Source: an uncultured cyanobacterium (lineage in GTDB: Bacteria > Cyanobacteriota > Cyanobacteriia > Phormidesmidales > Phormidesmidaceae). Taken from it: DNA of 64,000 nt. The stretch lies in assembly GCA_963803535.1 (NCBI GenBank), contig CAWDNC010000009.1, positions 140,571 to 204,570 on the forward strand. Direction: 5' to 3'. Of the stretch, positions 1 through 45,489 are shown piece by piece. The notes beneath the pieces are model-generated. The model saw only the letters and a list, made by a program, of their open reading frames with translations. It did no database searches and had not been told where the DNA came from. How positions within the stretch are numbered: position 1 is the first letter of the stretch; every line of letters starts with the position of its first letter. A program made the translations under genes and the position numbers.

Positions 1-3000
1 TGGAAAATTGGGAACCTACGCCTCCAGCAAATAGACTCGCAGGATGAACAGATTTCCCAGAAAACGTCAAAAGAAACGTTAAAAAAGACATTAGAAGAGA
101 ACATTTTTGAAATCGTCAATCCGTTAAACCGAGGCAAAGCACTGGCCACAACGGACGCTGAGCGCTATTTGATGGCGGATTTGAACTGGCAGGCAGGCCG
201 CAAAGCCAAAGCCGCCAACGCTTATGAGAGCGCGCTAAGCTACTTTGATACGGGCGTTTCACTACTGCCCGATGAAGCTTGGCAAACGCACTATGAGCGC
301 ACGTTTGCACTCTATCGAGACGTTTCTGAATGTGCCTATCTCTGCGGTCAGTTTGAGCGAGCAGAGCAGCTATTTGAACAGGCGATCGCCCAGGCAGCTT
401 CCGCCATCGATCAGGCAACCATTCAGCTAATCCGTATCGTCCTATACGACAATCAGGGCAAGTTTACTGAAAACCTAAGCGTTGGCGGCGAAGCCTTACG
501 AAACTTGGGCCTGAGCTGGCCAAATACCGCCGATGACACGGCCGCTATTCTTGAGAAAGAACAGATTGTCTATCAGCAGCAGCTCGCAGAACATTCCGAT
601 ATTTCTCGCCTAGTAGAACAGCCCGAGATGACGGACGTAACCGCTCGCACCTGTATGCAGCTACTGGTGAGTATGACAGGGCCTGCGTACTTTACAGACC
701 CCACCCTAGTTACGCTAATCACGTTAAAAATGTCTGTTTTATCCATGCAGTATGGCAGCTCACAGTGGGCCGCGCAGGGATATGTATTTTGGGGAGCAAT
801 GCTCTCAGCAGCTTATCAAGACTACAAAACAGCCTATGCCTTTGGGAAAGTGGGTCTACAGCTCACCGAACGCTACAACAACTACAACGAATCCAAAACG
901 CTGAACTCTTATGTTGGATTTATTAGCCACTGGCACGTTCCACTAGAAAAAGACATTCCCCTGTTGCGCAGAGGCTACTTAGCAGGCGTCGAGATTGGCG
1001 ATGTTTTTACCGGCTATGTAGCACACGTGCTGTCGCTACACCTTATTTTAATGGGCGCAGAACTCAGTGAGATTCAAGCTGAGGTCAGTCTTCTATCAGC
1101 CTATCTTCACAAGAGTCAAAATCAAGTTTTTGCTCAGCAGATGCAGGCCTACCTTTACTGCATTTCGGCCTACCAAACCGGTACATTTTCTCATAAAAAA
1201 GGGAGTCTAAGAGACTTTGACGAAGCCCGCTGTCAGCAGCTTTTCCAGGACAATCAGTATTTTACGGGCGTTGCAACCCTGCTATTGCTCAAAGTCGTCT
1301 ATCACTTTTTGTTCGAGCAATACGAGAAAGCGCTGGCGCTGTGTGAGGAGAATGAACAGTTCATTGTGTTTGTAGCTGGACTAGCCGCCGAATCAGAGCA
1401 TGTCTTCTACCATTCTTTGGTACTCACGGCGCTATACGACACCGCCAGCATCTCGCAGCAGCGCACCTACTGGGCCATTCTAGAAAAGCATCTCATTCGG
1501 CTGCAAGGCTGGGCCAAAAGCTGCGCAGCAAACTACCAGCATAAATATCTGCTGGTGGCCGCTGAAATGGCGCGGTTGTCTCATCAGCCTAGCGATGCGC
1601 TGGACTATTACGACCAGGCAATCACCTCAGCGCAGACGTATGGCTTTATTCAGAACATGGCGATCGCGAACGAAAAAACCGCTCAGTTCTGGCGCTCTAG
1701 AGGCAACAACAATGTGGCTATCACCTATGCCAGATCGGCTTACCATGCCTACAAACAGTGGGGCTCTACGGCCAAGGCTAATGCAATCGCCGCGCACTAT
1801 CCAGGGTTGCTAGTCACTAGCACGCCCCGTACCATCTCATCGGATAACAATCGTCTTAGCAGTGCTAATCAAACAACCTTGTCAGCCAGCGAAGGCGAAG
1901 AGAACCGACTGGATCTGGCAACCGTGATGAAAGCTTCTCAGGCGATCGCCAGCGAAATTCGCTTAGAAGGCCTCCTGCAAACGCTCATGCAAATTGTGAT
2001 AGAAAATGCCGGAGCCCAAACCGGCGTTTTGCTACTGCGCCCAGAAGGCATCTCAGATCCCGATCGCCCCTGGGTGGTTGAAGCGCTTAGCAATCACGAG
2101 GGCAACATTCTGACGCAACAGGTGCAGTCCATCGAGATATCGAAGGTGATGCCCGTTGCGATTATGAACTACGTGGCCAGAACACAAGAAGCGGTCGTGC
2201 TGGCCAATAGTCTTACGTCCGATACATTCTCCCCCGATCCTTACATCACCCAGCACCAGCCAAAATCCATTCTCTGTATGCCCATTGGCTACCGGGGCCA
2301 GCTTATCGGCCTGCTGTACCTCGAAAATAACTTAACCACCGGAGCCTTCACGCCCGAAAGGCTAGAAGTGTTGAGTCTGCTCTCTGCTCAGACGGCTATT
2401 TCGCTGACCAACGCTAGGCTGTACGAACAGATGCGATCGCTCAACAGCAATCTGCAACAGGAAGTAGCCCGTCGGCAAGCCAGCGAAACTATCCTTAGAG
2501 ACAATGAGCAGCGCCTCACTCAGCTCCTAGAAGGTATTCCAGTTGGGGTATTTGTTGTAGACGCGCAGGGCCAGCCTTACTATGCCAACCAGGTTGCCCA
2601 GCAAATCTTAGGCAAGGGGCTCTATCCCCAAGTCGCTCAAAATAATCTCACCGAAATCTACCAGGCCTATCAAGCAGGGACATCTCGCCTGTACCCAACC
2701 AATCAGCTGCCTATTGTCCAAGCGCTGCGTGGCGAAAGCGTTACCGTTGACGATATGGAAGTGCATCAGGGCGATCGCATCATCCCTTTAGAAGTCTCTT
2801 CTACCCCTGTATTCAACGCCAAAGGAGACATCACCTACGCTATCACCGCCTTTCAAGACATTACCCTGCGCAAACAAGCCGAACAACAGCGCACTCGAAT
2901 TTACCCGCACGCTAGAGCAAAAGGTACAAAACCGCACCCAGGAACTATCTCAAACGCTGGCGGTGCTCAAAGCTACTCAGGCAGAACTTGTCATTGAAAA

Positions 3001-10871: not shown

Positions 10872-12404
10872 ATGGTCTCACTTCTCGAAAACCCACTCCG
10901 CGTTGGCCTCCAACACGACCGCATTCCTGCCCCCCAAATTCTGGTCATCTTCGGCGCATCTGGCGACCTTACCCAGCGTAAGCTTGTCCCCGCACTGTAC
11001 CAAATGCGGCTAGAGCGGCGCCTGCCGCCAGAACTCACAATTGTGGGGGTCGCTCGTCGTGAGTGGAGCCACGACTACTTCCGCCAGCATATGAAAGAAG
11101 GAGTCGAGGAGTTTGGCGGCGGCTTGGGACCGGATAGTTCTGTATGGGATAAGTTTGCCGAAGGCCTGTTTTACTGTCCTGGCAACATCGATACACCTGA
11201 AGACTACCAGCGGCTCAAGCAATTCTTAGCCGAGCTGGATGAAAAAAGAGGCACGCAGGGCAACCGAGTATTTTATCTTTCCGTTGCGCCTCGGTTCTTT
11301 GCAGAAGCAGCCCAGCAGCTAGGGGGCGCTGGAATGCTGGCTGATCCGAGTAAACAGCGGTTAGTCATTGAAAAGCCTTTTGGTCGAGATTTAGCTTCCG
11401 CGCAAGCCCTGAACTACAAGGTGCGTAACGTTTGCGCTGAGGAGCAAATTTACCGGATTGACCACTACTTAGGCAAAGAAACGGTTCAGAACCTATTGGT
11501 GTTTCGCTTTGCAAACGCGATCTTCGAACCTCTGTGGAACCGTCAGTTCGTAGACCACGTGCAAATTACGGTAGCTGAAACGGTCGGACTTGAAGGTAGA
11601 GCGGGCTACTACGAAACCGCAGGTGCCATTCGTGACATGGTACAAAACCACCTGATGCAGCTCTTTAGCCTAACGGCGATGGAGACACCTAACTCATTAG
11701 ACGCAGCCAGCATTCGCAGTGAAAAGGTAAAGGTGTTGCAAGCAACTCGCTTGGCCGACGACACCGATCTTTCTAAGTCAGCGGTGCGCGGACAGTATTC
11801 TCCAGGCTGGATGAAAGGAAAACAGGTTCCTGGCTACCGCGAGGAGGAAGAAGGCATTGAAGAATCGACCAACAACACGTTTGCCGCACTTTCACTAAGA
11901 GTCGATAACTGGCGCTGGCAGGGAGTTCCGTTCTATCTGCGCACGGGCAAGCGCCTGCCGAAAAAAGTCTCTGAAATCTCGATCCACTTCAAGTCTGTGC
12001 CTCACCTGATGTTTCAGTCGGCGACCAAGCAGCTGAACAACAACATTTTGGCGCTACGCATTCAGCCGAATGAAGGCATTGCCATGCGCTTTGAGGTAAA
12101 AACGCCGGGGTCTTCTTTGCGCACGCGTTCGGTAGAAATGGACTTTCGCTATGATGCAGCCTTCGGTCAGCCCAGCACCGATGCCTATAGCCGCCTGCTC
12201 ATTGATGCGATGCTTGGCGACCAAACTTTGTTCACCCGAGGCGACGAAGTAGAACAGTCTTGGCGTGTGCTGACACCGCTGTTAGAAGTCTGGGATGCAC
12301 CTGCACCGCCTAACAGCATTCCTTTATATGAGGCAGGTACTTGGGGGCCAATTGAAGCCGAGCTACTGCTCAACCGCACCCGTCGCCGCTGGCGCAGACT
12401 TTAA
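10872..12404 (+). CDS. zwf: Glucose-6-phosphate 1-dehydrogenase
   Basis: [37 protein letters not shown]. Confidence 0.98.
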
Positions 12405-12463
12405 AGATAGGCAAACGCATTTGCTATTTTCCTTAGTCCTTCTAAACACTCTTCTGGGTAACC

Positions 12464-13828
12464 ATGACAACTACTAAATACAAGCCACCTGTTGCAACCT
12501 CTACGCTGGCGCTCCAAAAGCCTAAAAACATCTCGCCGAGTGATATCGAGACAGAGCTACAGAATATTTGGCAGACGCAGGAAGGCGATCGCAACACCCC
12601 CAGCGTCAAACGGGCCGATACCTTCACCATGGTCATCTACGAGCCAGAAGAAATTCAGCAGCTGCTCGGCACCCTGAGCTTTTACAAAAATGACATCGAC
12701 GGCCTGCATCGCTCAGAAACCAGAGAAGCGATTTTGTTGGCACAAAAAGCCTACAATTTAAGGCTCACGGGGCGAGTAGATACTGCGACGCTCGCTAAGC
12801 TACGCGAAGAAGTCAGTAACCTACCGCTCGAACAGCGAAAGCTCAAAAATGCTGACATTCGCGGGTTTAACTTTGACGGGCCTTTGGCGGCTCAAAACCC
12901 AGCTCGGGTGATTACGCTTTGTCCAACCTTTGGTGAAGACACGGGCGTTACCGCACAAGTATCTGCTTACTGCCCAGTGCAAAAGGCCGGTAGTGGCAAA
13001 ATGGTGTGCTGCGAGTACATTACTTTGCGGGGGACTAAAGAAGCACTAGAAGGCGTCGGCGATTTGGTGAACTCGCTAGTTATTGGCGATTTGCCTAAGT
13101 TTGTATGGTGGAAGGGAACGCCCAATCCTGAGCAAACGTTGTTCCAAACGCTAGCGCTCACCAGCAGCTGCTTAATTTTAGACTCCAGCTACTACGGTGA
13201 CGCGGGCGCTGAGATTGTCAAAATTCAGAAGCTGGTAGACGAGCACACAAATATTGCCGACCTCAACTGGTATCGCCTCGCCCCCTGGCAAGAGCTGGCT
13301 GCGGCTGCTTTTGATCCACCAGAGCGGCGGATGGCGCTTAAAGAGGTTGATAGAGTTGGCATTGATTATGAGAAAGGCAATCCGGCGCAGGCGCTGATGA
13401 TGTTGGGCTGGCTGGCGAGTCGGATGGAGTGGACGCTGAAGTCGTATGAGTACGAGGGTGGTGATTATGATGTGGAGCGGGTTTATTTTGTCGGGGAAGG
13501 CGATCGCACCATCGAAGCCGAACTCGCAGGCATTCCTGTTATCGACCAGGGCGAAGTCACGGGCGATCTCACCGGCGTACGCTTGCAATCGACCAATCCT
13601 CAGGCCAACTGCAACACTATTTTGTGTTCTGAAACGGTGGGCTGTATGAGAATGGAGTCGGGCGGCAGCGCCCAAAGTAGCCTCGTAAAAGAGGTCACGT
13701 CTCTCTCCGATCAGCGCTCAGACCTACTGCTGGGCCAGCAGCTACAGCGATGGGGCGAGGACGTTCTCTTTGAAGAAAGTCTGTCTGTCACCTCAGACAT
13801 TTTAGAAGTGATTACACAGCACCGTTAG
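12464..13828 (+). CDS. opcA: G6PDH assembly/activator protein OpcA
   Basis: Directly after zwf; CPV...CCEYITL, DLPKFVWWKG, IADLNW.RL.PWQE motifs. Confidence 0.93.
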   Translation: MTTTKYKPPVATSTLALQKPKNISPSDIETELQNIWQTQEGDRNTPSVKRADTFTMVIYEPEEIQQLLGTLSFYKNDIDGLHRSETREAILLAQKAYNLRLTGRVDTATLAKLREEVSNLPLEQRKLKNADIRGFNFDGPLAAQNPARVITLCPTFGEDTGVTAQVSAYCPVQKAGSGKMVCCEYITLRGTKEALEGVGDLVNSLVIGDLPKFVWWKGTPNPEQTLFQTLALTSSCLILDSSYYGDAGAEIVKIQKLVDEHTNIADLNWYRLAPWQELAAAAFDPPERRMALKEVDRVGIDYEKGNPAQALMMLGWLASRMEWTLKSYEYEGGDYDVERVYFVGEGDRTIEAELAGIPVIDQGEVTGDLTGVRLQSTNPQANCNTILCSETVGCMRMESGGSAQSSLVKEVTSLSDQRSDLLLGQQLQRWGEDVLFEESLSVTSDILEVITQHR

Positions 13829-18273: not shown

Positions 18274-20715
18274 CTATCGATCCCACTGCTGCTTTAGGCG
18301 CTCGATGCGATCGCGCAAGCTCTCACTCGTCAGCCTCGAACTCAGCCGCTCCACCAGTAGCGGGAACCCAAACGGCGACGGTCGCTCCACATCCATCCAC
18401 ACCAGCTCCATTGCCTTCATCCGCTTCAGCGCTGCGGTCAGCCTCGGTGCCTCTAGCTGCGTTTCAATCACCTCTCGCTCCGCCTGCTGAAGCAATAAAT
18501 TCTCCGGCTCATACTTACTAAACACCTCATAGATCAGCGACGAACTAATCTGCACCTGATTCGCCGTTTTCTTAGACCCCGGATAGCCCTTAAATACCAG
18601 CCCTGAGACCTGAGAGATTCCTCTAAATCTCCGCTGCGTCAGCTCAGAAATATTCAAGCTCTCTTTTATCTCCGCATACAAGTCTCGCGTTGAGAAAAAG
18701 TCTGCGCTAAATAACGCCTTAAACGGATAGTCCTTTGGCGCTAAAATCTCAAAGCCATAGTCATTCACCGACACCGTAAACGTAGCCTTTTGCAGCTGCG
18801 AAAGTCGGTAGGCCCACAAAAAGCCAATACCTTCGTGTACATTGCGCCCTTCAAACGGATACACATATAAGTGCTGTCCTTCTCTAGTTCGGCAGCATTC
18901 CATCAAAAACTGACCCACTCCTGGCAAATGTGAAATACTGTCTTGGGTCGCCAAAATTGGCATAATACAGGCCACCTCAGGGCTGACGTTGCCTTCTTTT
19001 ACCTGCGTAATTTCTTCTCGTATGTACTGGCTTAGCCGATCTGAAATCGCTAAATACCCGCCGCTCCACACCGGCACCACGCTAGACTTCTTCTTCGCGT
19101 TTTTCACATACAGCGTCATATCCTTCATTTGAAAAAATTCAAGCTGCCTGCCCGCAAAAAAGAACACATCCCCTTTCTTTAATCGAGAGACAAAGCTCTC
19201 TTCTACCGTGCCAATAGACTTTCCCTTAGCATAGGTAATTTTCACCTGCTGATTGCCCGTAATCGTGCCGATGCTCATCTTATGCATCCGCAAAATTCGC
19301 CCGTCTTCTACCCGATACACACCGGCTTCCAACACAATCTTTTGATAGCGTGGATACGCCTTCAGACACTTTCCCCCTTTCTCTAAAAAGTTCAGCATCC
19401 AGCCAAACTCTTCTTTCGTTAAGTCTTGGTAGGAGAATGTCTTTGTTACAGCATCAAAAGTCTCATCGGGCGCAAAGCCATCACCGCAGGCTAACGTTAC
19501 CAAATGCTGAAGCAGCACGTCATAAGGCTTATTTAGCGTATGTCGTGACTCAATATCGCCTGCCTTCAGTCCCCGCCTAAACGCAGATATTTCCAACAGC
19601 TCCAGCGCATTAGTCGGTAGAAAGAACACTTCAGAGGTTCCGCCCGGTAAGTGCGCTGAACGGCCTGCTCTTTGCAGCAGTCGGGCTAGATTCTTTGCGC
19701 TGCCGACCTGCACCACACGCTCTACAGGCTGAAAGTCTACGCCCAGATCTAAGGAGGAAGTGCATACCACCCACTTTATTTTGCCTGCTTTGAGTCCCGC
19801 TTCGATGGCAAGACGAGTGTTGAAATCGATAGAGCCGTGATGCAGCGCGATCTGGTGTTCGTGATCGGGCATGGAAAAGGTAAGGGCTTGAAACCATTTC
19901 TCTGCCTGCGATCGGGTGTTCGTAAAAATCAGCGTAGAGCGCTCAATATCCAGCACGGCCACCAGTTCTTCAAACATTCTTAGGCCTAAGTGCCCTGCCC
20001 AAGGAAAGCTATCGACAGACGCGGGCAGTACGCTGGTAATCACCGTCTTACGCTTAATTTTTGACTGGATGACAACGGGATTGCTACCGATGCCCGTTGC
20101 CGCCTCGGCCGCCTCCTGCAAGTTCCCGAGCGTGGCTGAAATGGCCCACGTCTGTACGGCTGGCTGAAGCGATCGCACGCTCGACATGCACAGCTCCACC
20201 TGCGTCCCTCGTTTAGACGACATCAGCTCATGCCACTCGTCTAAAATCACGCAGCGCAGCGACTCAAACCGCTTTGCAGATCCCTTGTAAGACAGCAGCA
20301 CTGACAGCGACTCAGGCGTGGTAATCAACACGTTCGGCATCTTTTTAATTTGCCGACTCTTCACCGAAGCTTTGGTGTCACCCGTACGCGACTCCACCGT
20401 AATCGGCCAGCCCATCTCTTCAATTGGCCGCTTAATTGAGATTTCGATGTCTCGTGACAGCGCCCGCAATGGCGTGATGTACAGCAGCTGGAGACCACTT
20501 AGGGGCTTACCTGCTTTCTCTCCTGTCTTTTCTGCGGCGGCCAGCATTTGGGCCACTGGCCCCATAACCGCCCCGTAAGTTTTCCCTGAGCCAGTGGGAA
20601 CCTGAATGATACCGCTATGGCCCGACAGATAGGCCTGCCAAGTCTTTTTTTGAAAGGCGATGGGCTTCCAGTTTTGCTGGTCAAACCATTTCGTAACCGG
20701 GGTAAGGATCGCCAC
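18274..20715 (-). CDS. lhr: Lhr-like DEXH-box helicase of the ligase-associated DNA damage response type (Lhr-core)
   Basis: PTGSGKT, ITPLRALSRD, TTPESL, LDEWHE, SATLGN, HHGS, SSLDLGVD, QRAGRS; ~810 aa. Confidence 0.9.
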   Translation of the reverse strand: MAILTPVTKWFDQQNWKPIAFQKKTWQAYLSGHSGIIQVPTGSGKTYGAVMGPVAQMLAAAEKTGEKAGKPLSGLQLLYITPLRALSRDIEISIKRPIEEMGWPITVESRTGDTKASVKSRQIKKMPNVLITTPESLSVLLSYKGSAKRFESLRCVILDEWHELMSSKRGTQVELCMSSVRSLQPAVQTWAISATLGNLQEAAEAATGIGSNPVVIQSKIKRKTVITSVLPASVDSFPWAGHLGLRMFEELVAVLDIERSTLIFTNTRSQAEKWFQALTFSMPDHEHQIALHHGSIDFNTRLAIEAGLKAGKIKWVVCTSSLDLGVDFQPVERVVQVGSAKNLARLLQRAGRSAHLPGGTSEVFFLPTNALELLEISAFRRGLKAGDIESRHTLNKPYDVLLQHLVTLACGDGFAPDETFDAVTKTFSYQDLTKEEFGWMLNFLEKGGKCLKAYPRYQKIVLEAGVYRVEDGRILRMHKMSIGTITGNQQVKITYAKGKSIGTVEESFVSRLKKGDVFFFAGRQLEFFQMKDMTLYVKNAKKKSSVVPVWSGGYLAISDRLSQYIREEITQVKEGNVSPEVACIMPILATQDSISHLPGVGQFLMECCRTREGQHLYVYPFEGRNVHEGIGFLWAYRLSQLQKATFTVSVNDYGFEILAPKDYPFKALFSADFFSTRDLYAEIKESLNISELTQRRFRGISQVSGLVFKGYPGSKKTANQVQISSSLIYEVFSKYEPENLLLQQAEREVIETQLEAPRLTAALKRMKAMELVWMDVERPSPFGFPLLVERLSSRLTSESLRDRIERLKQQWDR

Positions 20716-28845: not shown

Positions 28846-29763
28846 CTATAGAGACTTTAGCCATTGATCTAAATCGCCTAAGTCTTTGAGATCAAATATC
28901 GCTTCACCGAGTGCCTCTAAGCTCGCAGTAGGTAGCTCAAACACAGACTTCTGAAGCGTGCTTGAAAGGGTTCCAAAGCGCTTCGTTAGCATCCTATTAA
29001 TAAGGTTTGCCGCTTCTTCTCGACGGCCCTGCTCAATGCCTTGCTCAATGCCTTGCTCAATGCCCTGCTCAATGCCCTTAACAAGACCTTGCTCAAGACC
29101 TTTTTTTTCTGCGGCTTCTTTGACTTCTTGATAAACCCGCGTCTCTTCAAAGGTAATATCTAGCATCGCCTCTACCTCTTTTGTACTTAGCTGTTTGAAC
29201 TTGTATGAGATGATCGTGGTGACCATTTCTATGATGGCACGACTTTCAGATTGATGAACTTCTCGCTCTGATCTCTCAATGATGTAGCGAGCCTCCGACG
29301 GGGCCTGTTTTTCCTTCACCGTTGTGAGCATCATAAGTGCGACCCAGATAGGTTGGCTTCTGATGTTGCCTAGCTGGTCAAGAAAAATGCGATGTGTCTG
29401 CCCGTTATTTAGTAAGCTGCGATGAGGATACAGCTTGTTTTGCTCAGTGCTTCGCGATGGGTAGATAACGACCACCTGCCAGTCACTGAACTTTTCACAG
29501 TTACGGTAAAAGTATAGTGCTGTTTCGGCAAAGATTCTTTCGTAAAGCTTTTCATCTTTTTGAAACTGAACTTCAACAAAGAAAACGGGGTCTATACTAC
29601 CTTCTGGTGGGAGCAGTACGCCGTCAATCTCAAATTTTGGCTCTTTGACAGCTACCGAATCAAAGCGGTAGCGATCTGCGTTGTCAGGGATCGTAGGAAC
29701 CAGTTCAAATAAAAGAGTTGGTGACTGCCTAAACAGCTTGTAGAAAATAGTATCTCGCTTCAT
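28846..29763 (-). CDS. DUF2887/Rpn-type PD-(D/E)XK nuclease-like protein with C-terminal DUF4351-like region
   Basis: MKRDTIFYKLF, Y.F.SVAVKE..F.IDG, FVEVQFQKD; (GIEQ)n 12-bp repeats at about 29027-29077. Confidence 0.85.
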   Translation of the reverse strand: MKRDTIFYKLFRQSPTLLFELVPTIPDNADRYRFDSVAVKEPKFEIDGVLLPPEGSIDPVFFVEVQFQKDEKLYERIFAETALYFYRNCEKFSDWQVVVIYPSRSTEQNKLYPHRSLLNNGQTHRIFLDQLGNIRSQPIWVALMMLTTVKEKQAPSEARYIIERSEREVHQSESRAIIEMVTTIISYKFKQLSTKEVEAMLDITFEETRVYQEVKEAAEKKGLEQGLVKGIEQGIEQGIEQGIEQGRREEAANLINRMLTKRFGTLSSTLQKSVFELPTASLEALGEAIFDLKDLGDLDQWLKSL

Positions 29764-29817: not shown

Positions 29818-32278
29818 CTACTGTGCAGGTGGCAGCGGAAGCCGCCAGGTACCGCTGCCCCAGGAAGCGATATAGAGATGGGTTTCTGCGGTCACGGGGT
29901 CAGTGATGATTTTGGTGCGAAATGACTTTGGAAAAGAGAGATCGCCTGTGATGTCGAGAATGTTGGAGGCTTTGTTGTTGGCTAAAGTGACTTCGTACAT
30001 GCCGTGACCCAGGTTTGTTGGTGCGAGTGTCTGTGCGCTGAGATAAACTTTGTCGTCAAGACCTGAAACTGCAAAGATGATGGGGCTGACCTCGCTGAAA
30101 TCGAACAGCGGTTTGCGGCGGGCGGTAAGATCGTTTACATCTAACAAAGGTTGCCAGCGATCGCCCCCATTATCTGAAAGCTGTAGCTGCCAGCGATCGC
30201 CTGATTTTGTGGCCGCTGCAACCACCGTTGTGCCCGCCTGATCCCACGCATCAAACGTCACCAGCGCATCTGAAGAGAGAATCGGTGTCCATGTCCAACG
30301 CTGTTCTTTCAGCGGTAAATTACTGTTACCGTCACGCGCGCCTTTGTACAGCGTATTGCCGTCAGCAACATAAAGCACTTTGTTGTTGTTAGGATCAAGC
30401 ACCATAGAACCCTCGTATTCGTTTGCACTAGGGCTATCAGGCAGGCGTGGGAAATAGTCGAGTGCTAAGTCGTTCAAACGAGCGTAGTAGAGGTAAGCAA
30501 TATCAGGAATGACATAGATTCCCTGACCGCGCGTGCTGATATACACGCGTCCCGGCTCACTGGGATCGGCAACAATGTTGGTGTATACGTCGCTCGCCAG
30601 TCCGCGCCCGTCACCGTATTTTCCGGTGCCTCCTGCCAAAAAGTACCAGCGCACTGGCTGTGGATTCGCCGGGTCGATTTGCGCGGCCCACAGTTCGCCT
30701 TCGGTATTGTTGGCCCCAAAGTCGAAGGGGCCACTGTAGTGCGCTAGCAGATAAACGTCGTCGCCTTTTGTGACGATGGCATTCGCTTGAGACTTGGCGC
30801 GGCGCGGGCTAGAGACATCTTCCCAGCTTTGCCCGCCATCCCAGCTCATCGTAACGCCGTGGTCTGCTCCCGAGCGCATCACCACGTTGCCGTAGCGGCT
30901 GATGTCCATGTCTACGGTGCTTTGCCAGCCAATGCTGTGGTAGGTGTCGATTTGATCCACCGTGGCGATCGCATCTCCCATAAAGGCCGCATTTACCGGC
31001 ACCTCAGTAAAGGTCGTCTGCGGCGGGCTGGTGTAGATCGGTTCCCAGCTGTTGTGCCAGTTCGCCGCACTTGGGCTCGCTTCGTCTACTTTGAACAGGG
31101 TTTGATCGCCTGCTGTCCAGATGCTGCGATCGCCCCAAGGCAAAGGCGCATACTGATAGGCCAGCGCGCGAGGCTTGTTCCCATAAATGCCGCCTTCCCA
31201 GCCGATTCCAAAGGCCGCTGTGCTGCGCTGGTCGTACCAAAATACCTGCTCCCAACTAGCCACTGGCTGAGCGACTGGCTGGCTGTTTTGCCAGCTGATG
31301 GTGACTTCGTAGAGTCCGGTTCGCTGCTCGCCGTCTGCGACGAGTAGGCTGTGGCGATCGCGACTACGCGGATCAACGACAATATTGCGAAAGGCCGCTT
31401 CAGGGTCGTCTGGCATTCCGTTTCCGGCCAAAGCCTGCCAGGTTGCACCCTGATCGCGACTGACAAACAGGGCGGTGCCTGCTGAGTCCGCGCGACCAAA
31501 CGCAGCATACAGCGTGCCGTCTGGCGCTACGGCTACGCCCTCTACTCGGGCAGAAGTGTTGGCAGGATTGGTGAACCTGTGACCATTGGCCAGACGCACC
31601 AAAGCCATCGCCTCGCCACAGTCCGCCTGCCGCCGTCGCTGCAAATACGGTCTGCCGGGTGGGGTCTTGTGCCAGCTGTAAAATGCTTTTGTCTTGCTCA
31701 GAGACTGGCCCAAAGCGAACGGTGCTAAACGTGGAGCCGCCGTCTGCGGAGCGAAACACTGCGGCCTGCGTGAGGGTGCTATCGCGCTTGTTGCCTACAC
31801 CCGCGATCACCTGCCGATTGTTTGTAGAATCCACCAGTACGCTACCAACTGCAAGTTCTTCATCACGGTCAGTTTTTGTCAGTAGCTCAGGATGGGCGCG
31901 ACGACTGGTATCCGAATGTAGCTGCCAGGAACGCCCGCCATCGCGAGAGGTATGCAGGCCTACTGTGGTGCCTAAATAAACTCGATTGGCATTTTTGGGG
32001 TCGTAGGCCAAGCTGAGCGCGTTGGTTCCCGCAAGGCCGCGTGAGGCGTAAGTCCAGCTGCTGCCGCCGTCAAGCGTGTGATAAAGGCCGTCTACATCAG
32101 AGAGGACGAAGGCGCGATCGCTGTTGAGCGGATCGAGCACAACGTCTTGGATTTGGCCGCCTGCGCCTGGGTTTAGCGACTCCCAGTTTTGGGCTGAGGC
32201 CGGATGACTGGTGATGATAAAAGTAGCGATCGCTCCAGCGATCGCGGCCCCCATCAGTAATTTTTTGAAGGTTTTCAT
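29818..32278 (-). CDS. Secreted BNR/Asp-box beta-propeller protein (GH74/VPS10-like); apparent frameshift near 31572
   Basis: Signal peptide (MKTFKKLLMGAAIAG...ASA), Asp-boxes (TLDGGSSW, SRDGGRSW, SADGGSTF, SRDQGATW, SWDGGQSW, SDNGGDRW); removing one base joins GQWSQV-TNPANTSARVEG. Confidence 0.78.
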
Positions 32279-32461
32279 ACCTTTGTCTTTTGGTTGAGTA
32301 AGGCCATTGGTGCCAGCAGTCGCAAAGTATTTTACAAAGCAAATAGAATGCTGTCCGAACGAATCACGACGGCTTCACACGTTCGGCCACCTCATCTCGT
32401 TATTTTACTCACGAATAAAGTTAAGCGGAGCGGCACAAAGCCAAAACCTACAGGCCCACTA

Positions 32462-35400
32462 TCAACTTCTCAAGTCTTTAATTACATACAACAGCTCGTT
32501 ATTGTATGTGTCCCCATTGCTAAGGTCTCGATAGTGCACGCGCTCTATCTCATCCGGAATTTCGCACGCCGAAATCAGCACCGGAACAATCTTTTTCTCT
32601 ACCATCCGCGCCATTTCTAGCTCCCACTCCACATAAGTCGAGGCAACGGCACCGGGCGTTAGCAGCACAACAACCGCATTCACTTCACGTAAAGCCTTTC
32701 GCAGCTGTGCTTTCCACTCTTTGCCGCCCTCCATATCCGTAATGTCTTGCCACACCGAAAATCCGGCAGCGCCCACTTCATCTCGAAACCGTTTTGCGGC
32801 TGCGGTTCCATCAGCGCGAGCGTACGAGAGAAAGATGTTCTTTTTTGACTCAGGAACAGTGACATCAGCTAAAATCTTTTCTCGCTGAACAGCGGGCGGC
32901 TGTGTGTAATAGCCTTTAAATTGCTTGTCTATTTGGCCATAGCCGCGCCCACCTTCTTCTATGTCATAGCGGGCAGCTCGGTCGCTAACATCACTCATCA
33001 AGCGGCGAACATCTACTTTTTTATAGCTTTTTCGGCAGTCAATATCGTACTGATGATCGCCAATATATTTCATCAGCAAATCGTAAGGATAAGACTCTGG
33101 CTGGGCGCTGTCTTTGCACTGCTCGCAGTTGCAGGGAATTAGCTCGTCGTATTGTAAGCGCTCGTAGGATTCGTGAATTTTCCAAAGCTCGTGACGGACG
33201 TTTTCGAGTAGGGGCTTTTTGTTGCTACCACTGACGCGGACGTTGATTTCATTTTTGGGATAGTTTTCAATTACCTGAGCGCGCGCCCATTTGTCAGATA
33301 GGACAACGCCATTTTTCCAAACGTGGTTTTGATCTTCTATCAGCGAATGCGTTTCTACGATGAAGCGGGTGAGAATGCCTTTTGGCATGAAGTCGTAGCG
33401 GTAGCGAATGATGAGATTGTTGCTATCTTCCCAAGGAAAGTCGGGCTTGCTGATAGGGAGGAGTTGAGGCGCGATGTATTGGCCTTGTTGTCCGGGGATT
33501 TCGTAGGCGAGCTTGAAGCGCATCATCAGCTGAAGAAGTTCATCGCGTAGCTCCGAGTACTGGCTGTCGCTCCAGATATTTTCAGTGTCTTGCTCGGTGA
33601 AGCGGCCTTTGCTGTTGCGGACGATATCGCTGTCGGCAACTTTGTAGACGGCGGCGGTGGCCCATTCGGGACTGAGGATGACCGTGCGTTTTAGAATTTT
33701 GTCGTCTTGGAAGTGGAGGCATACGCCGAGATCGTGAAGATAGCTGCTGAGGGACAGCATCTGTTGTTTGTCGGCAAAGCCGTTTTGGCGGCAGATATCG
33801 AAGTATTGATCTACGGTGATGGTGTTGCAGTTTTGGGCGTAGTTTTCTAGGGCGGCGCGGACGCGAACCCAGATTTTAGGCAGCGGCTGGCCGACGTGGG
33901 GAAGTTTGCTGATGTGGTAGCGGATGGCGTCTTTGATGTCGTTGAGGCCGCGATTATCTTTTAGGTTGGTGGGCAGGTAGTCTTTGAGGTTGTTGAACTG
34001 GCTTTTAAATTGGCCTTCGTCAATTTCGCATTGGCGGTTTTGCTTTTCGTTTTTGATCACTAACACGGGGCTGCTGTCGCTGAGGAGTTCGACTATTTTT
34101 AGCCAGTAGTAGAAGTCGGTATTTTCCTGGCGGGTGTCGGCAACTAGAAGATATAGGGAGCGTTTGGTGAGGAAGAACTGGTGTGTGGCGTGATAGATTT
34201 CTTGTCCGCCAAAGTCCCAAATGTTGACGCGGAAGGTGTTGCCGTCAGATAGCGGGAAGTCCCAGCGGATTACGTCAATGCCTTCGGTTGAGGCTTCGTC
34301 CTCGGGTAGCTCGTAGGCTTCGTCATCAATTTTCTTAGCTAGGGACGTTTTGCCTGCACCGCCTTCGCCTACAAGAATAAGCTTTGCTTCGTACAGAGGT
34401 GTAGAGCCTTGTTCTGCTTGTAGTGAAAAGTAAAAGCCTAGTGTTTCTATTGCAGGGCTAGGCTTTTCGTAGCTTTCTTTTGGCCCTAATATTTCTGGTG
34501 GAATAGGTAATGGGTTCCCGCGCATGTCTAGCGTCTCTAATCTTTCTAGCGATTTAGCCCAGATTGGTAAGGTGCTGAGCTGATTGCCACTGAGGTTGAG
34601 CGTTTGCAGGTTCGTTAGCTGTCCGATGACCTCGGGCAAGGTGCTGAGCTGATTGAAACTGAGGGAGAGCGATTGCAGGTTCGTTAGCTGACCGGTTATC
34701 TCGGGCAAGGTGCTGAGCTGATTGCTCATGAGGGAGAGCGATTGCAGGTTCGTTAGCTGACCGATTACCTCGGGCAAGGTGCTGAGCTGATTGCTCCTGA
34801 GGGAGAGCGATTGCAGGTTCGTTAGCTGACTGGTTACCTCGGGCAAGGTGCTGAGCTGATTGCTTATGAGGTCGAGCGATTGCAGGTTCGTTAGCTGACC
34901 GATTACCTCGGGCAAGGTGCTGAGCTGATTGCTCATGAGGTAGAGCGATTGCAGGTTCGTTAGCTGACCGATTACCTCGGGCAAGGTGCTGAGCTGATTG
35001 TCACTGAGGTAGAGCGATTGCAGGTTCGTTAGCTGACCGATTACCTCGGGCAAGGTGCTGAGCTGATTGCTCATGAGGTCGAGCGATTGCAAGTTCGTTA
35101 GCTGACCGATTACCTCGGGCAAGGTGCTGAGCTGATTGCTCATGAGGTCGAGCGATTGCAGGTTCGTTAGCTGACCGATTATCTCGGGCAAGGTGCTGAG
35201 CTGATTGCTCATGAGGTCGAGCGATTGCAGGTTCGTTAGCTGACCGATTACCTCGGGCAAGGTGCTGAGCTGATTGCTCCTGAGGTCGAGCGATTGCAGG
35301 TTCGTTAGCTGACCGATGACCTCGGGCAAGGTGCTGAGCTGATTGCTCATGAGGTCGAGCGATTGCAGGTTCGTTAGCTGACCGATTACCTCGGGCAAGG

Positions 35401-35656
35401 TGCTGAGCTGATTGCTCCTGAGGGAGAGCGATTGCAGGTTCGTTAGCTGACCAAGTTCACGGGGCAACGCTGTTAAGTTGTTGCCAATAATTTTCGACTG
35501 CTTACGATCAATTTTTCCTAGTACGAGTGTCTCTAACTTTGTCAGTCTTCCAATTTCTGGCGGTAGCTCATCCAGCTTCATACCGGCCAAATCTAGCGTC
35601 GTTCGTTCGTCTGCTGCTGCCTCATCAATCAGTCTAAGCAATTCTTCTTGAGTCAC
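32462..35656 (-). CDS. LRR-Roc-COR-TIR protein (Roco GTPase with C-terminal TIR_2 domain)
   Basis: About 15 LRRs; Roc P-loop GEGGAGKTSL, switch STEGID and WDFGGQE; COR region; CNCEQC motif; TIR 'IFLSYAR...VW.D...G.EW...S.YVEWEL' with the conserved Glu. Confidence 0.93.
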   Translation of the reverse strand: MTQEELLRLIDEAAADERTTLDLAGMKLDELPPEIGRLTKLETLVLGKIDRKQSKIIGNNLTALPRELGQLTNLQSLSLRSNQLSTLPEVIGQLTNLQSLDLMSNQLSTLPEVIGQLTNLQSLDLRSNQLSTLPEVIGQLTNLQSLDLMSNQLSTLPEIIGQLTNLQSLDLMSNQLSTLPEVIGQLTNLQSLDLMSNQLSTLPEVIGQLTNLQSLYLSDNQLSTLPEVIGQLTNLQSLYLMSNQLSTLPEVIGQLTNLQSLDLISNQLSTLPEVTSQLTNLQSLSLRSNQLSTLPEVIGQLTNLQSLSLMSNQLSTLPEITGQLTNLQSLSLSFNQLSTLPEVIGQLTNLQTLNLSGNQLSTLPIWAKSLERLETLDMRGNPLPIPPEILGPKESYEKPSPAIETLGFYFSLQAEQGSTPLYEAKLILVGEGGAGKTSLAKKIDDEAYELPEDEASTEGIDVIRWDFPLSDGNTFRVNIWDFGGQEIYHATHQFFLTKRSLYLLVADTRQENTDFYYWLKIVELLSDSSPVLVIKNEKQNRQCEIDEGQFKSQFNNLKDYLPTNLKDNRGLNDIKDAIRYHISKLPHVGQPLPKIWVRVRAALENYAQNCNTITVDQYFDICRQNGFADKQQMLSLSSYLHDLGVCLHFQDDKILKRTVILSPEWATAAVYKVADSDIVRNSKGRFTEQDTENIWSDSQYSELRDELLQLMMRFKLAYEIPGQQGQYIAPQLLPISKPDFPWEDSNNLIIRYRYDFMPKGILTRFIVETHSLIEDQNHVWKNGVVLSDKWARAQVIENYPKNEINVRVSGSNKKPLLENVRHELWKIHESYERLQYDELIPCNCEQCKDSAQPESYPYDLLMKYIGDHQYDIDCRKSYKKVDVRRLMSDVSDRAARYDIEEGGRGYGQIDKQFKGYYTQPPAVQREKILADVTVPESKKNIFLSYARADGTAAAKRFRDEVGAAGFSVWQDITDMEGGKEWKAQLRKALREVNAVVVLLTPGAVASTYVEWELEMARMVEKKIVPVLISACEIPDEIERVHYRDLSNGDTYNNELLYVIKDLRS
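34571..35452 (-). repeat. Tandem array of 13 near-identical 69-bp LRR-coding units
   Basis: Unit core (+ strand) ggtgctgagctgattg...gagcgattgcaggttcgttagctgaccga..acctcgggcaa recurs every 69 bp. Confidence 0.97.
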
Positions 35657-35672
35657 CTTTTTCTGCCACTAT

Positions 35673-35868
35673 TGCTGTTGACAGCATACCGCAGTCAATC
35701 AGCTGTATTGCGAGGGTTATCGTGACAATTGCGTCGAAAATACTATTGCAAGGCTACTAAATACAACAATATTCAGTCAATACTGTTTTTCATAAAACGA
35801 GCTCACTACGCATTTGTGAGGATTTCATGTCAAATAATTGACAGCACCGATACCGTAGCGCTACGCTA
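35673..35868. promoter_or_regulatory. Palindrome-rich divergent intergenic region between the TIR gene and the small ORF
   Basis: TTGAC-N11-GTCAA (35678-35698), TGTCAA-N4-TTGACA (35828-35843), direct repeat TTGACAGCA at 35678 and 35838. Confidence 0.45.
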
Positions 35869-35988
35869 ATTTCCATAGCTGTTGTTCGGCACTCATCCGA
35901 ATGCGCAGCAGCGAAACCGCCCCGAAAAACTTAGCCACTGACGACGACTGCTACCAACAATCGCCGCCAGCTCGCCCCCAGACCGTCT

Positions 35989-36063
35989 AGCCCGGTCAGC
36001 GGGTTGTGTCAATGATGACACAGCCACCCTGACTCTTGGCAAGTTGAGGGTGGCTATTTTTTT
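35989..36063 (+). promoter_or_regulatory. Attenuator-like structured leader: three overlapping hairpins, the last followed by T7
   Basis: agcccg/cgggtt (35989-36005), ggttgtgtca/tgacacagcc (36002-36025), agccaccct/agggtggct (36022-36055), then TTTTTTT (36057-36063); AGGAG at 36088. Confidence 0.6.
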
Positions 36064-36098
36064 CGTGCGGCTTTTCTACCCCACAAAAGGAGAGCCCC

Positions 36099-36422
36099 AT
36101 GAAATCCACTAACCCATTGACTGGCCTATCTTCCACAGGTCAGCCACAGCACCCAATGCCCACAAAAATACCACCCGAACAAGCCATCGCCGCCCACCTG
36201 CGCCCGCTGCCCCAGTTCGCCCCCTCCGGCACCCCACCCAAAAAATCCATCCGCCACATCCTGCTAGGCGAACCCGAGGCCATTCGCCAAACCATCCACC
36301 TACTCCACACCCTCCACTACACCGAAACCATCCTATGGACGCCTGTTTTATCCATTGAGGAGCCACTGATAATTGCGCCCGCTCAAAGCGAAGCCATTAG
36401 TCTGTTGCGAAAGCAATTGTGA
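36099..36422 (+). CDS. Small cyanobacterial hypothetical protein (RHILLG.P.A...TIH.LH.L.Y...W-type)
   Basis: SD AGGAG before the ATG; the C-terminal 60 aa resemble a family of uncharacterised small cyanobacterial proteins (recalled, not searched). Confidence 0.7.
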   Translation: MKSTNPLTGLSSTGQPQHPMPTKIPPEQAIAAHLRPLPQFAPSGTPPKKSIRHILLGEPEAIRQTIHLLHTLHYTETILWTPVLSIEEPLIIAPAQSEAISLLRKQL

Positions 36423-36615
36423 TCTGATTGGTGAGTTGCGTAGCGTTCTATTTCTATGCGTGCGTGCAACTATGAGGTTGTTGGCTGAGGGCCACAGGTG
36501 CCGACCCACCTCGCATCCCAAAAAATATAAGGGCACTCCTCCCAAGAGGAGATCTTTCTGGGCTGCGTGTTTGAAGGAGATTCAACAACATCTATCTTCA
36601 CAGCCCAAAGAAAAT

Positions 36616-36677
36616 CCCCTCCATCGGAGGGGTGGCGCGTAGCGACGGGGTGGGTCGGCAACCTAAGCGACCCACCC
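36616..36677. repeat. REP-like/short dispersed palindromic element
   Basis: CCCCTCC-ATC-GGAGGGG followed by GGGTGGGTCG...CGACCCACCC (perfect 10-bp stem); a similar ctcctc/gaggag hairpin near 36535. Confidence 0.6.
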
Positions 36678-36752
36678 ACACCAAACACACACAAGACGAC
36701 ATCTTCAATAGCCACTTCATAGCCTGCTTCGATTGCGGCTACAGAAAATAGA

Positions 36753-37250
36753 CTAAACAGATATTTCGCCACTTGGCTTTTCGCTGCTGACCGTGGCGTA
36801 TACGGCGATCGCACCCGTAATCGCACTCACCCAAACGTTGTTACCGTAAACAGGCATTACCCCAAATACAGAATTAGTGATAGGCAACAGACCCACCAAA
36901 GCACCCAGCGGCAGGAAAACCGCGCAGAAGCGATTGTAGTTGTAGCTGCCGCGATCGCCCGTAGAAGAATACAGGCCAATAAGGCCTAGCGCTGCGCCCA
37001 AAATATTGTGCAGCGTATTGGTTGGGAAAATTCCAAACAGATAGCCAAATCCACGAACAAAGCCATCAACATAGTCCGTTCCCGCAGTCAGTGAAACGTC
37101 GCCGCCGGTCAGAGGCGCGCCTGAGCTGACCGCGTTAGCAGGCAGCGATACAAAATCAGGAACAAAGCCCGCGAAGCCAAGAACTGTAAAAACTAGGCCA
37201 ATTACCAGCGCACAAATACGCCCAGTCGTCAGAGTGTTATCAGTACTCAT
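36753..37250 (-). CDS. DUF4383-like membrane protein
   Basis: Four hydrophobic segments; GYLFGIFPTNTLHN, LPITNSVFGVMPVYGNNVW. Confidence 0.75.
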   Translation of the reverse strand: MSTDNTLTTGRICALVIGLVFTVLGFAGFVPDFVSLPANAVSSGAPLTGGDVSLTAGTDYVDGFVRGFGYLFGIFPTNTLHNILGAALGLIGLYSSTGDRGSYNYNRFCAVFLPLGALVGLLPITNSVFGVMPVYGNNVWVSAITGAIAVYATVSSEKPSGEISV

Positions 37251-45140: not shown

Positions 45141-45345
45141 GGCGATAGCCATTGGCTGCCTGCTGCGGTCTCCCAAAAGCTCGATTCTGGGTATTGATTG
45201 CGGCGCTTTATGGCCTGCCGGTGTCGATGCACACTGCTTTTACTAATACCGGTCGTTACGGCGATCTTTCTGAGTGTCTCTCGTACATTTGCGTCGACAC
45301 AAGCGGCAACTTTCTGGCTCCGTGCTCTTATACTGATGATCATCG
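45140..45345 (-). mobile_element. N-terminal fragment of a cyanobacterial transposase-like (DUF6399-type) gene
   Basis: SIRARSQKVA...LRKIAVTTGISKSSVHRHRQAIKRRNQYPESSFWETAAGSQWL (HTH-containing N-terminus), then loss of similarity; no catalytic domain or clear terminal repeats. Confidence 0.6.
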
Positions 45346-45489
45346 TGCCCTTGTTTTAACTTGTTAGGGTGACGATACATGGCTCTGGGCTTTGCCGCAG
45401 AGCTTTTTTAATGTGCTTATTGATACAGCTTTGTCAGCACCTTCTGTCCCGCTTTAAGTTGCTACCCCTAAGGGGTTGAACACAAATGG

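Follow-up and report, generated by a model that had tools for sequence, protein, structure and literature searches.

Can a single bacterial gene encode the sensor, the switch and the effector of an immune receptor? The question is raised by a gene in a 64,000-nucleotide stretch of DNA (hereafter the window; contig CAWDNC010000009.1, positions 140,571 to 204,570) from an uncultured cyanobacterium of the Phormidesmidaceae, whose product combines leucine-rich repeats (LRR), a Roc GTPase domain, a COR domain and a C-terminal TIR domain. Prokaryotic "AP-GTPase + COR" conflict proteins were predicted by Kaur et al. (2021; eLife, PMC8195603, Fig. 6D) to be counter-invader systems, with a fast-evolving N-terminal LRR and at least 24 C-terminal effector domains including TIR, caspase-like domains and EADs; because of that study, both the LRR-Roc-COR-TIR architecture and its immune reading were already published as a prediction. 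The architecture is common and the window gene is one ordinary member of a large described family, to which it almost certainly belongs. As for its function, a one-gene combination of sensor, GTPase switch and nicotinamide adenine dinucleotide (NAD+) hydrolase (NADase) that leads to growth arrest or cell death is the account we favor, with moderate confidence.

The gene is a single, uninterrupted open reading frame (ORF; Table 1), and the assignment of its GTG start is right because the N-terminus VTQEELLRLIDEAAAD matches the start MTQ(D/E)ELLRLIDEAAAD of its homologs. All five domains called with Pfam scored over the gathering cutoffs, and the architecture is LRR-Roc-COR-A-COR-B-linker-TIR. 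A preliminary description made from the sequence had proposed an intact ORF of 1064 amino acids (aa) with LRR, Roc, COR and TIR domains; the ORF and the architecture are borne out by profile searches, and the strand (minus) can now be added. The motifs quoted there are all present (GEGGAGKTSL at residues 430–439, WDFGGQE at 480–486, CNCEQC at 842–847 and STYVEWELE at 1006–1014), with two corrections: the protein does not end at STYVEWELE, which is followed by 50 further residues, and CNCEQC is no separate element between COR and TIR, since it lies inside the Pfam COR-B envelope.

The full-length AlphaFold2 (AF2) model, built from a 63-sequence alignment, has a mean predicted local distance difference test (pLDDT) of 82.6 and falls into four parts, namely a confident LRR solenoid, a Roc-COR body, a low-confidence segment (aa 895–936) and the TIR domain. 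Foldseek placed the LRR-Roc-COR structure of CtRoco at the top of its matches to this model (6hlu, E 7e-41), followed by LRRK1 and LRRK2, with a further match to CtRoco 3dpu (E 1e-24); PDB sequence searches also returned CtRoco (E about 1e-65), MbRoco2 and LRRK2. By sequence and predicted fold the protein is a bacterial Roco. Pfam gave no NACHT, NB-ARC or AAA_16 match in the protein, its NTPase being Roc/Ras-like; the earlier label "NLR-like" holds by analogy, and the switch is a Ras-like Roc GTPase and not a STAND NTPase.

The defining features of the Roco core are all in place: a Ras-like Roc domain with P-loop and DxxGQ switch II, which aligns to MbRoco2 (4wnr, 3e-37) and CtRoco, and COR-A and COR-B directly C-terminal to it. 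Residues G430, G435 and K436 and the DFGGQ stretch D481–Q485 are invariant in the alignment of 63 homologs, so far as sequence can tell an apparently intact GTPase switch. The canonical G4 motif ([NT]KxD) is lacking; the protein has NEKQN at the place where CtRoco and MbRoco2 have NKiD. The cyanobacterial clade has an invariant K-N-E-K there, followed by Q and in most cases D; at position 540 the homologs have Asp (55/63), Asn (6/63, the window protein among them) or Gly (2/63). Roco membership stands nonetheless, because G4 is typical of GTPases and does not define the family. At the end of COR-B, C842, C844 and C874 occur in 63/63 homologs and C847 in 62/63; this four-Cys set, which may reasonably be taken to bind zinc, is missing from CtRoco, where IPL replaces the IPC842 of the window protein. 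The C-terminal half of COR mediates Roco dimerization (PMC6337361), and in CtRoco GTP produces an open monomer via a hinge at the LRR-Roc linker, within a nucleotide-dependent monomer-dimer cycle (PMC11052575).

The predicted sensor was modeled as a regular strand/helix repeat with pLDDT mostly above 90, and in Foldseek it resembles Leptospira LRR proteins and the LRR of CtRoco. Tandem Repeats Finder detected a 69-bp tandem array at 34569–35452 (12.8 copies, 94% identity), in which the 12 core units have identical codons nearly throughout. The few differences are not scattered evenly: 6 of the 12 variable nucleotide columns lie in codons 8, 10 and 11 of the unit (hypergeometric P = 5e-4), which, as x5, x7 and x8 of LxxLxLxxN, are predicted to lie on the concave face formed by the beta strands. 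The proportions of nonsynonymous (pN) and synonymous (pS) differences are 0.33 and 0.033 at these positions (ratio about 10) vs. 0.017 and 0.041 at all others (ratio about 0.4), values that are indicative only because the repeats of one gene are not independent lineages. Variation of the concave face recurs in three of four homologs, P0002 (P = 0.002, on 7 core units, two degenerate terminal units being left out), P0072 (P = 0.006) and P0034 (P = 0.05). We read this array as the product of concerted evolution combined with diversification of ligand-facing residues. Compared with its ortholog P0002 from locus L001, the window protein is 86% identical in Roc, 84% in COR-A, 72% in COR-B, 62% in TIR, 58% in LRR and 35% in the linker (the neighboring MAPEG proteins of the two loci are 72% identical); change is therefore slow in the switch core and faster at the two ends, sensor and effector, as Kaur et al. 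(2021) described for the N-terminal LRR.

The putative effector is attached through a linker (aa 889–936) that is probably flexible, judging by the model, and that is without the GDNxAGDK...TQ motif seen in P0002, L003 and relatives that bear a helical tail (see below). A TIR-only AF2 model (pLDDT 81) matched Hydra TRR-2, Caenorhabditis elegans TIR-1, SARM1 and SPARTA TIR-APAZ in Foldseek at TM 0.7–0.8, so that the enzymatic SARM1 and SPARTA domains rank high by structure; TIR-SAVED and SARM1 are the best PDB matches by sequence. The register of the catalytic site was taken from a profile of the TIR subtype aligned to SARM1, as pairwise HMMER alignment was mis-registered there, and it sets V-E-W-E on V-H-K-E642 of SARM1, G978 on G601 and D971 on D594. 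Among close members of the subtype E1012 is found in 13/13, E1014 varies and G978 is invariant. The G601P substitution impairs SARM1 activity. PDB entry 6o1b bears the title SARM1 "TIR domain G601P mutant". With a flavodoxin-like fold, a Glu equivalent to E642 and a BB-loop Gly equivalent to G601, the catalytic machinery of the TIR domain appears intact by sequence. TIR catalysis needs oligomerization (PMC10899771).

This TIR subtype is rare among Rocos (2/63 proteins of the Roco alignment). Its nearest relatives are fragments of other Roco-TIR genes (P0121, and P0123 in L003) and short stand-alone TIR proteins of 46–60% identity, which at the loci examined adjoin large or TPR genes and never ThsA. 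The best PADLOC match of the domain is the SAVED-TIR effector model (6e-15); matches to Thoeris models were a marginal one to Pfam ThsB_TIR (22.9 bits vs. a cutoff of 21.2), partial ones to PADLOC ThsB (down to 6.7e-10) and a partial one to NCBIfam Thoeris type III ThcB4 (1.6e-14; 53.5 bits vs. a cutoff of 220). This TIR subtype (67–69% identity) also occurs in a third LRR-Roc-COR-TIR locus, L003 5047–8318, on the same contig as L053; the locus has frameshifts in the LRR array and in a repetitive GDNIAGDKV linker, which are either long-read assembly errors or real decay.

Homologs were searched for with the Roc-COR-TIR part as query, and the figures given here hold among the matches listed. 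At least dozens of cyanobacterial proteins have the LRR-Roc-COR-TIR_2 architecture at 50–57% identity and 91–97% coverage, many of them annotated by NCBI as "COR domain-containing protein" or "TIR domain-containing protein". Species-representative genomes yielded 63 related loci, mostly cyanobacterial, of which about 13 reach into the TIR domain; the few others come from Anaerolineales, Thermoflexales, Melioribacteraceae, Spirochaetota and one metagenome-assembled genome (MAG) of Halobacteriota. This archaeal MAG (L061, JAXHTN010000017.1) holds a Roco relative that matches query residues 93–1021 at 34% identity and thus reaches the TIR region; if the binning is right, it would be an LRR-Roc-COR-TIR-like gene outside Bacteria. 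The nearest relatives (75–79% identity) belong to uncultured or Phormidesmis-like cyanobacteria, which fits with the HIP1-rich sequence of the window.

The closest of these relatives, 74–83% identical over Roc-COR, cover about 75% of the query and lack the TIR domain. They share the end of COR-B (IPCNCxxCK...IECRxSY...VDVRRL), after which three alternative endings occur: TIR (P0002), a CHAT protease (P0068 and P0072, whose Roc-COR is 64% identical to that of the window protein) or a helical tail of about 83 aa (P0004-6, P0012, P0014 and P0016). The Roc-COR cores of relatives with differing endings are 64–83% identical. Upstream of the Roco gene the window has genes for a 395-aa membrane protein, a cyclic nucleotide (cNMP)-binding/sigma-54-type regulator and MAPEG, and orf107. 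In Cyanobacteria bacterium J06598_1 (L015) three of these upstream genes recur (80% identity for the 395-aa gene, 63% for the cNMP regulator and 73% for MAPEG) and the downstream genes are those of L001 (HepT-like, ShlB/POTRA, FAD oxidoreductase, RRF and UMP kinase). The positional orthologs differ at their C-termini, with TIR in the window and L001 (P0002) and the helical tail in L015 and L007 (P0014): the C-terminal module has been exchanged in place at one chromosomal position. The variable C-terminal effector position described by Kaur et al. (2021) is found here in the form of TIR, CHAT and helical tail. No partner gene common to six Roco loci (window, L001, L005, L006, L007 and L008) was found, and the neighbors of the LRR-Roc-COR-CHAT gene P0072, checked for gasdermin, gave no Pfam matches.

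Copies of the helical tail lie at 12239–12568 and 13180–13506 of L007, 14349–14675 of L001 and 8209–8457 of L015; the window has none. The tail shares 49% identity with the C-terminal end of a DUF4926 protein encoded two genes downstream of P0014 (L007 12919–13509), and the tail of this DUF4926 partner has an 80%-identical copy on a 164-aa ORF located 1 kb downstream of P0002, beyond an insertion sequence (IS) element. A word-based homology search with the 84-aa tail gave no matches; an exhaustive HMMER profile search found 722 sequence clusters with the tail, which in nearly every case forms the very C-terminus, and among the 97 members of at least 180 aa it accompanies COR-B in 26, pentapeptide repeats in 14, EAD7 in 2 and a TRADD-like N domain in 2. 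Pfam placed no model on the tail regions of the partner proteins or of the first tail member scanned, and no description of such a tail was found in the literature searched. From its distribution it looks like one of the effector-associated adaptor domains described by Kaur et al. (2021). The IS element (DUF4096 + DDE_Tnp_1; L001 13310–14163), situated between P0002 and the orphan tail-bearing ORF, may mark a rearrangement that altered this locus.

Several known systems help to place the window gene. With the AP-GTPase-COR systems of Kaur et al. (2021) it shares the fast-evolving LRR, the Roc and COR core and the variable C-terminal effector, being a member of that group; what goes beyond that study is the swap between positional orthologs, the quantified LRR pattern, the rare TIR subtype and the adaptor-like tail unmodeled by Pfam. 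A 2019 review of Rocos stated that every prokaryotic Roco has a simple LRR-RocCOR arrangement (PMC6337361). The only experimental precedent found in the literature searched comes from Runella, in which a Roc-COR-CHAT protease cleaves a bacterial gasdermin (Johnson et al., bioRxiv 10.1101/2021.06.07.447441): Roc-COR is likewise fused to a C-terminal death effector, but there a CHAT protease acts on a separately encoded gasdermin, whereas the window gene has a TIR domain without a partner. CtRoco (6hlu, 8r4b and 3dpu), a structural model for LRRK2, has the same LRR-Roc-COR-A-COR-B order and fold and differs by lacking the TIR domain and the four-Cys module and by its canonical NKiD G4. SARM1, TIR-SAVED (7qqk) and SPARTA TIR-APAZ have in common with the window protein the TIR fold, equivalents of D594, G601 and E642 and a terminal TIR controlled by a sensor, although sequence identity is only about 20% and their control elements are an ARM/SAM octamer, a cyclic-nucleotide-bound SAVED filament and an Argonaute, respectively, in place of a Ras-like GTPase with COR. 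STAND NLR-like proteins (bNACHT, Avs) and plant TIR-NLRs likewise combine sensing by repeats with switching by an NTPase and killing by an effector such as TIR; the NTPase of the window protein, however, is not a STAND ATPase, and its order is the reverse of that in plant TIR-NLRs, with the LRR N-terminal and the TIR C-terminal. Thoeris (ThsB + ThsA) also has a TIR domain, and that of the window protein has weak similarity to ThsB models; the window TIR differs in being part of one polypeptide with a sensor and a switch and in lacking a ThsA-type partner; assignment to Thoeris was rejected as no ThsA-type gene is present.

On these grounds the product may be viewed as a cytoplasmic, single-polypeptide receptor of the prokaryotic Roco ("AP-GTPase-COR") conflict family, for which we infer a ligand, a direction of the nucleotide switch, oligomerization of the TIR domain, NADase activity and a defense phenotype. 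The concave face of the LRR would bind a protein that is invader-derived or danger-associated; binding would free or re-orient the LRR about the LRR-Roc hinge and shift the nucleotide state of Roc, and this change would alter self-association mediated by COR-B. Some 45 residues of probably flexible linker join the TIR domain to the end of COR-B, so that COR-B self-association should set the closeness of TIR domains to one another. Paired or clustered TIRs would then form a composite active site around E1012 and hydrolyze NAD+, and the cell would arrest or die, as in abortive infection or regulated cell death; in this scheme TIR would be the terminal effector and not a signal generator of the Thoeris type. 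The precedent of CtRoco suggests, by analogy, that the active state would be either a GDP-bound or empty dimer or a larger assembly of ligand-bound open monomers. As GTP-bound CtRoco is monomeric, it could be the dimer, GDP-bound or empty, that kills, and in that case the protein would also respond to a collapse of the GTP pool. One may go further and combine the two lines of evidence, so that the monomer-dimer cycle of COR-B gates the TIR NADase and the lineage switches in place between a cis effector and recruitment in trans; we advance this only tentatively and regard it as doubtful. Such gating would be a route distinct from STAND resistosomes, SAVED filaments and Argonaute tetramers, and in the exchange TIR or CHAT as an effector in cis may alternate with trans recruitment via a C-terminal helical adaptor common to small partner proteins, which, if true, would make the locus a clear natural example of single-locus cis/trans effector exchange.

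The one-gene composition proposed by the preliminary description agrees with the prediction in PMC8195603 and is supported by the exchangeable C-terminus, the concave-face variation of the LRR, the conserved TIR residues and the lack of a shared partner gene. Several observations nevertheless speak against the favored account, besides the caution on the pN and pS values given above. The window is not a defense island: the neighbors are metabolic or housekeeping genes (among them an Lhr-type helicase, a GlcNAc 2-epimerase, an Asp/Glu racemase, a DUF2887/DUF4351 protein, a BNR-repeat protein, DUF4383 and MAPEG) with PADLOC matches to generic domains only, and the loci of the homologs carry only scattered toxin-antitoxin (HEPN/MNT), Uma2 and CHAT genes. 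PADLOC v2 has no whole-protein model for LRR-Roc-COR-TIR and matched only the TIR part, and no experimental work on any Roco-TIR protein was found in the literature searched. The top structural match of the TIR domain is that of a metazoan Toll-related receptor, Hydra TRR-2, which in the profile alignment has Thr and not Glu at the position of the catalytic Glu. In P0051 the concave-face pattern is not replicated, its 11 LRR units being identical, and the pattern is therefore in part a matter of repeat homogenization and not of selection alone. The clade-wide non-canonical G4 and Asn540 could weaken guanine binding or change the affinity or specificity for nucleotides, and, if CtRoco is a guide, its monomeric GTP-bound "active" state is hard to reconcile with a TIR domain that needs oligomerization.

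Some of these facts would fit a protein that is not anti-phage and acts in regulated cell death, kin recognition or stress signaling of filamentous cyanobacteria, its TIR domain being maybe mainly a scaffold. This we consider unlikely, even though the gene holds a syntenic position amid ordinary genes outside any defense island, the protein had no match in 50,697 phage records, the best structural neighbor of its TIR domain is metazoan and, in PMC7159879 and PMC8195603, the family is described as enriched in multicellular prokaryotes: residues that a pure scaffold could do without (catalytic Glu, BB-loop Gly and Asp) are conserved across the subtype, swapping of the C-terminus with CHAT or adaptor tails and diversification of the concave LRR face are hallmarks of conflict systems, and cell death triggered by infection would overlap the favored account and not replace it. 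The preliminary description had named homologs that are single-copy housekeeping genes outside defense-rich regions as evidence against a defense role. The gene is not of this single-copy housekeeping kind: several distinct Rocos occur in single Nostoc strains (P0029 and P0043 in Nostoc sp. KVJ3; P0023, P0085 and P0097 in Nostoc sp. UIC 10630), and 12 plasmid records have COR-domain genes covering more than 55% of the query, with no second Roco copy within the 64-kb window.

The Thoeris-like matches of the TIR domain (marginal for Pfam ThsB_TIR, partial for PADLOC ThsB and below cutoff for ThcB4) raise the alternative that it generates a signal, a cyclic ADP-ribose (cADPR)-type or related nucleotide that activates an effector encoded elsewhere, NAD+ depletion not being the killing step; bacterial TIRs often make cADPR isomers (PMC10022894). 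We judge this improbable, since similarity to effector-type TIRs (SAVED-TIR) is at least equal to that to ThsB, relatives have a CHAT protease in the same C-terminal slot, for which the literature lists other terminal effectors, and no ThsA, SIR2, SLOG or Macro gene stands beside the stand-alone TIRs of the subtype, within about 12 kb in the window or at L001, L005, L006, L007 and L008; the absence of an adjacent ThsA or SIR2 gene, noted earlier for the window, extends to the five other loci. That the window gene is a weakened or decaying copy, in which D540N in the G4-like motif and deletion of the linker motif uncoupled the switch from the effector, is very improbable: residue 540 is Asn where most homologs have Asp, the linker departs from that of P0002, L003 and the tail-bearing relatives and the related locus L003 is broken by frameshifts, but the 3.2-kb ORF is unbroken and keeps every other catalytic motif, Asn540 is a tolerated variant found in 6/63 homologs and the whole clade had already moved away from NKxD. 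The least credible alternative, a secreted LRR virulence or adhesion effector, derives from partial NCBIfam matches to XopAC, XopL, SlrP and a Leptospira fibronectin-binding protein (E 3e-16 to 4.5e-60) and from the best PDB sequence matches, which are Leptospira LRR proteins; the NCBIfam matches are confined to the LRR and far under their cutoffs (e.g., 204 vs. 450 bits), the remainder of the protein is an intracellular-type GTPase with a TIR domain, no secretion-system genes lie nearby, and the domain coverage of the matches effectively refutes this idea.

Bacterial Rocos serve as structural models for human LRRK2, and no treatment of their cellular role, that of CtRoco included, was found in the literature searched. 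In a Roco with a TIR output, NAD+ consumption would offer a simple enzymatic readout of Roc-COR activation, with which one could examine how COR transmits ligand binding at the LRR and nucleotide state. Such a Roco would likewise put to the test the 2021 prediction of an immune or cell-death receptor role for these proteins in multicellular prokaryotes. The positional orthologs with TIR and with adaptor tail can be used as natural chimeras for this purpose.

Table 1. Features of the Roco gene and its upstream region, in window coordinates unless residues (aa) are given.
Feature	Position	Strand	Details
Complete ORF	32462..35656	minus	1064 aa, GTG to TGA; LRR-Roc-COR-A-COR-B-linker-TIR
N-terminal helical cap and LRR solenoid, aa 1–400 (predicted sensor)	34457..35656	minus	Pfam LRR_4/LRR_8/LRR_14
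Pfam LRR families	aa ~20–390		E 2e-56
Twelve near-identical 23-aa (69-bp) LRR units, aa 71–346	34619..35446	minus	Variable unit positions 8, 10, 11
Roc GTPase domain, aa 425–537	34046..34384	minus	Pfam E 1.8e-24
P-loop GEGGAGKTS	34343–34369	minus	Within Roc
G3 motif DFGGQ	34202–34216	minus	Within Roc
Non-canonical G4 motif NEKQN, aa 536–540	34037..34051	minus	Alignment to homologs, CtRoco and MbRoco2
COR-A, aa 593–733	33458..33880	minus	Pfam E 1.9e-46; AF2 pLDDT about 83–93
COR-B, aa 746–888	32993..33421	minus	Pfam E 2.7e-41; aligns to CtRoco up to aa 842
Four-Cys module CNCEQC...C (C842, C844, C847, C874), C-terminal end of COR-B	33035..33133	minus	
Linker aa 889–936, COR-B to TIR	32849..32992	minus	AF2 pLDDT < 50 at aa 895–936
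TIR, aa 937–1064	32465..32848	minus	Pfam TIR_2 aa 941–1052, E 4.2e-21
Candidate catalytic Glu E1012	32621–32623	minus	SARM1 E642 equivalent
BB-loop Gly G978	32723–32725	minus	SARM1 G601 equivalent
D971	32744–32746	minus	SARM1 D594 equivalent
Upstream intergenic region (presumed promoter), Roco gene to divergent orf107	35657..36098		

The origin of the gene was also reconsidered, as a scarcity of HIP1 sites in it had been taken as a hint of lateral transfer. The scarcity is real: the window has 76 HIP1 sites vs. 1.6 expected by chance, and the largest gap between them (32238–36805) spans the Roco gene, with a nominal P of 0.022 for zero sites in the gene. As evidence it is weak, for a gap this large arises somewhere in the window in 25% of random placements and HIP1 is not depleted in the homologous genes at 4/5 other loci. 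GC content and GC content at third codon positions (GC3) of the gene are ordinary, its tetranucleotide deviation vanishes when the LRR tandem array is left out (48/155 windows at least as deviant), and it occupies a syntenic position (395-aa gene, cNMP regulator, MAPEG, orf107, Roco) common to related genomes. A recent lateral origin is not supported on any of these counts.

In the region upstream of the gene no sigma-70-like promoter was detected on the Roco strand in 35657–36098, and the scan for promoters and terminators gave nothing above shuffled expectation. The divergent orf107 (36099–36422, plus strand) has no Pfam or PADLOC match; it is a conserved small neighbor, with homologs in L007 (68% over 71 aa) and L001 (61% over 31 aa) that likewise lie upstream of Roco genes. 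Directly downstream, on the minus strand, a BNR/sortilin-like repeat protein (29818–32278) is split into the overlapping ORFs 31400–32278 and 29818–31713, with what reads as out-of-frame sequence where the first ends and the second begins; this is a frameshift, due either to a pseudogene or to a sequencing error. Next to it, a DUF2887/DUF4351 protein is encoded at 28846–29763 (minus strand) with GC 0.45 and GC3 0.46, below those of its neighbors. A segment of about 330 bp without a long ORF (45142–45467), single-copy in the window, shares 81% identity with L001 8379–8709, an interval that overlaps a DUF6399 gene at its 5' end; the window segment is probably what is left of a gene of that family. 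Finally, the Lhr-type helicase at 18274–20715 (minus strand; WH_Lhr, DEAD_assoc) has strong partial PADLOC matches to SngC, DpdJ and BrxHI (about 1e-53 to 4e-62) and is probably the housekeeping Lhr, because PADLOC matched nothing in the same-strand gene upstream of it and the next ORF on its other side lies on the opposite strand.

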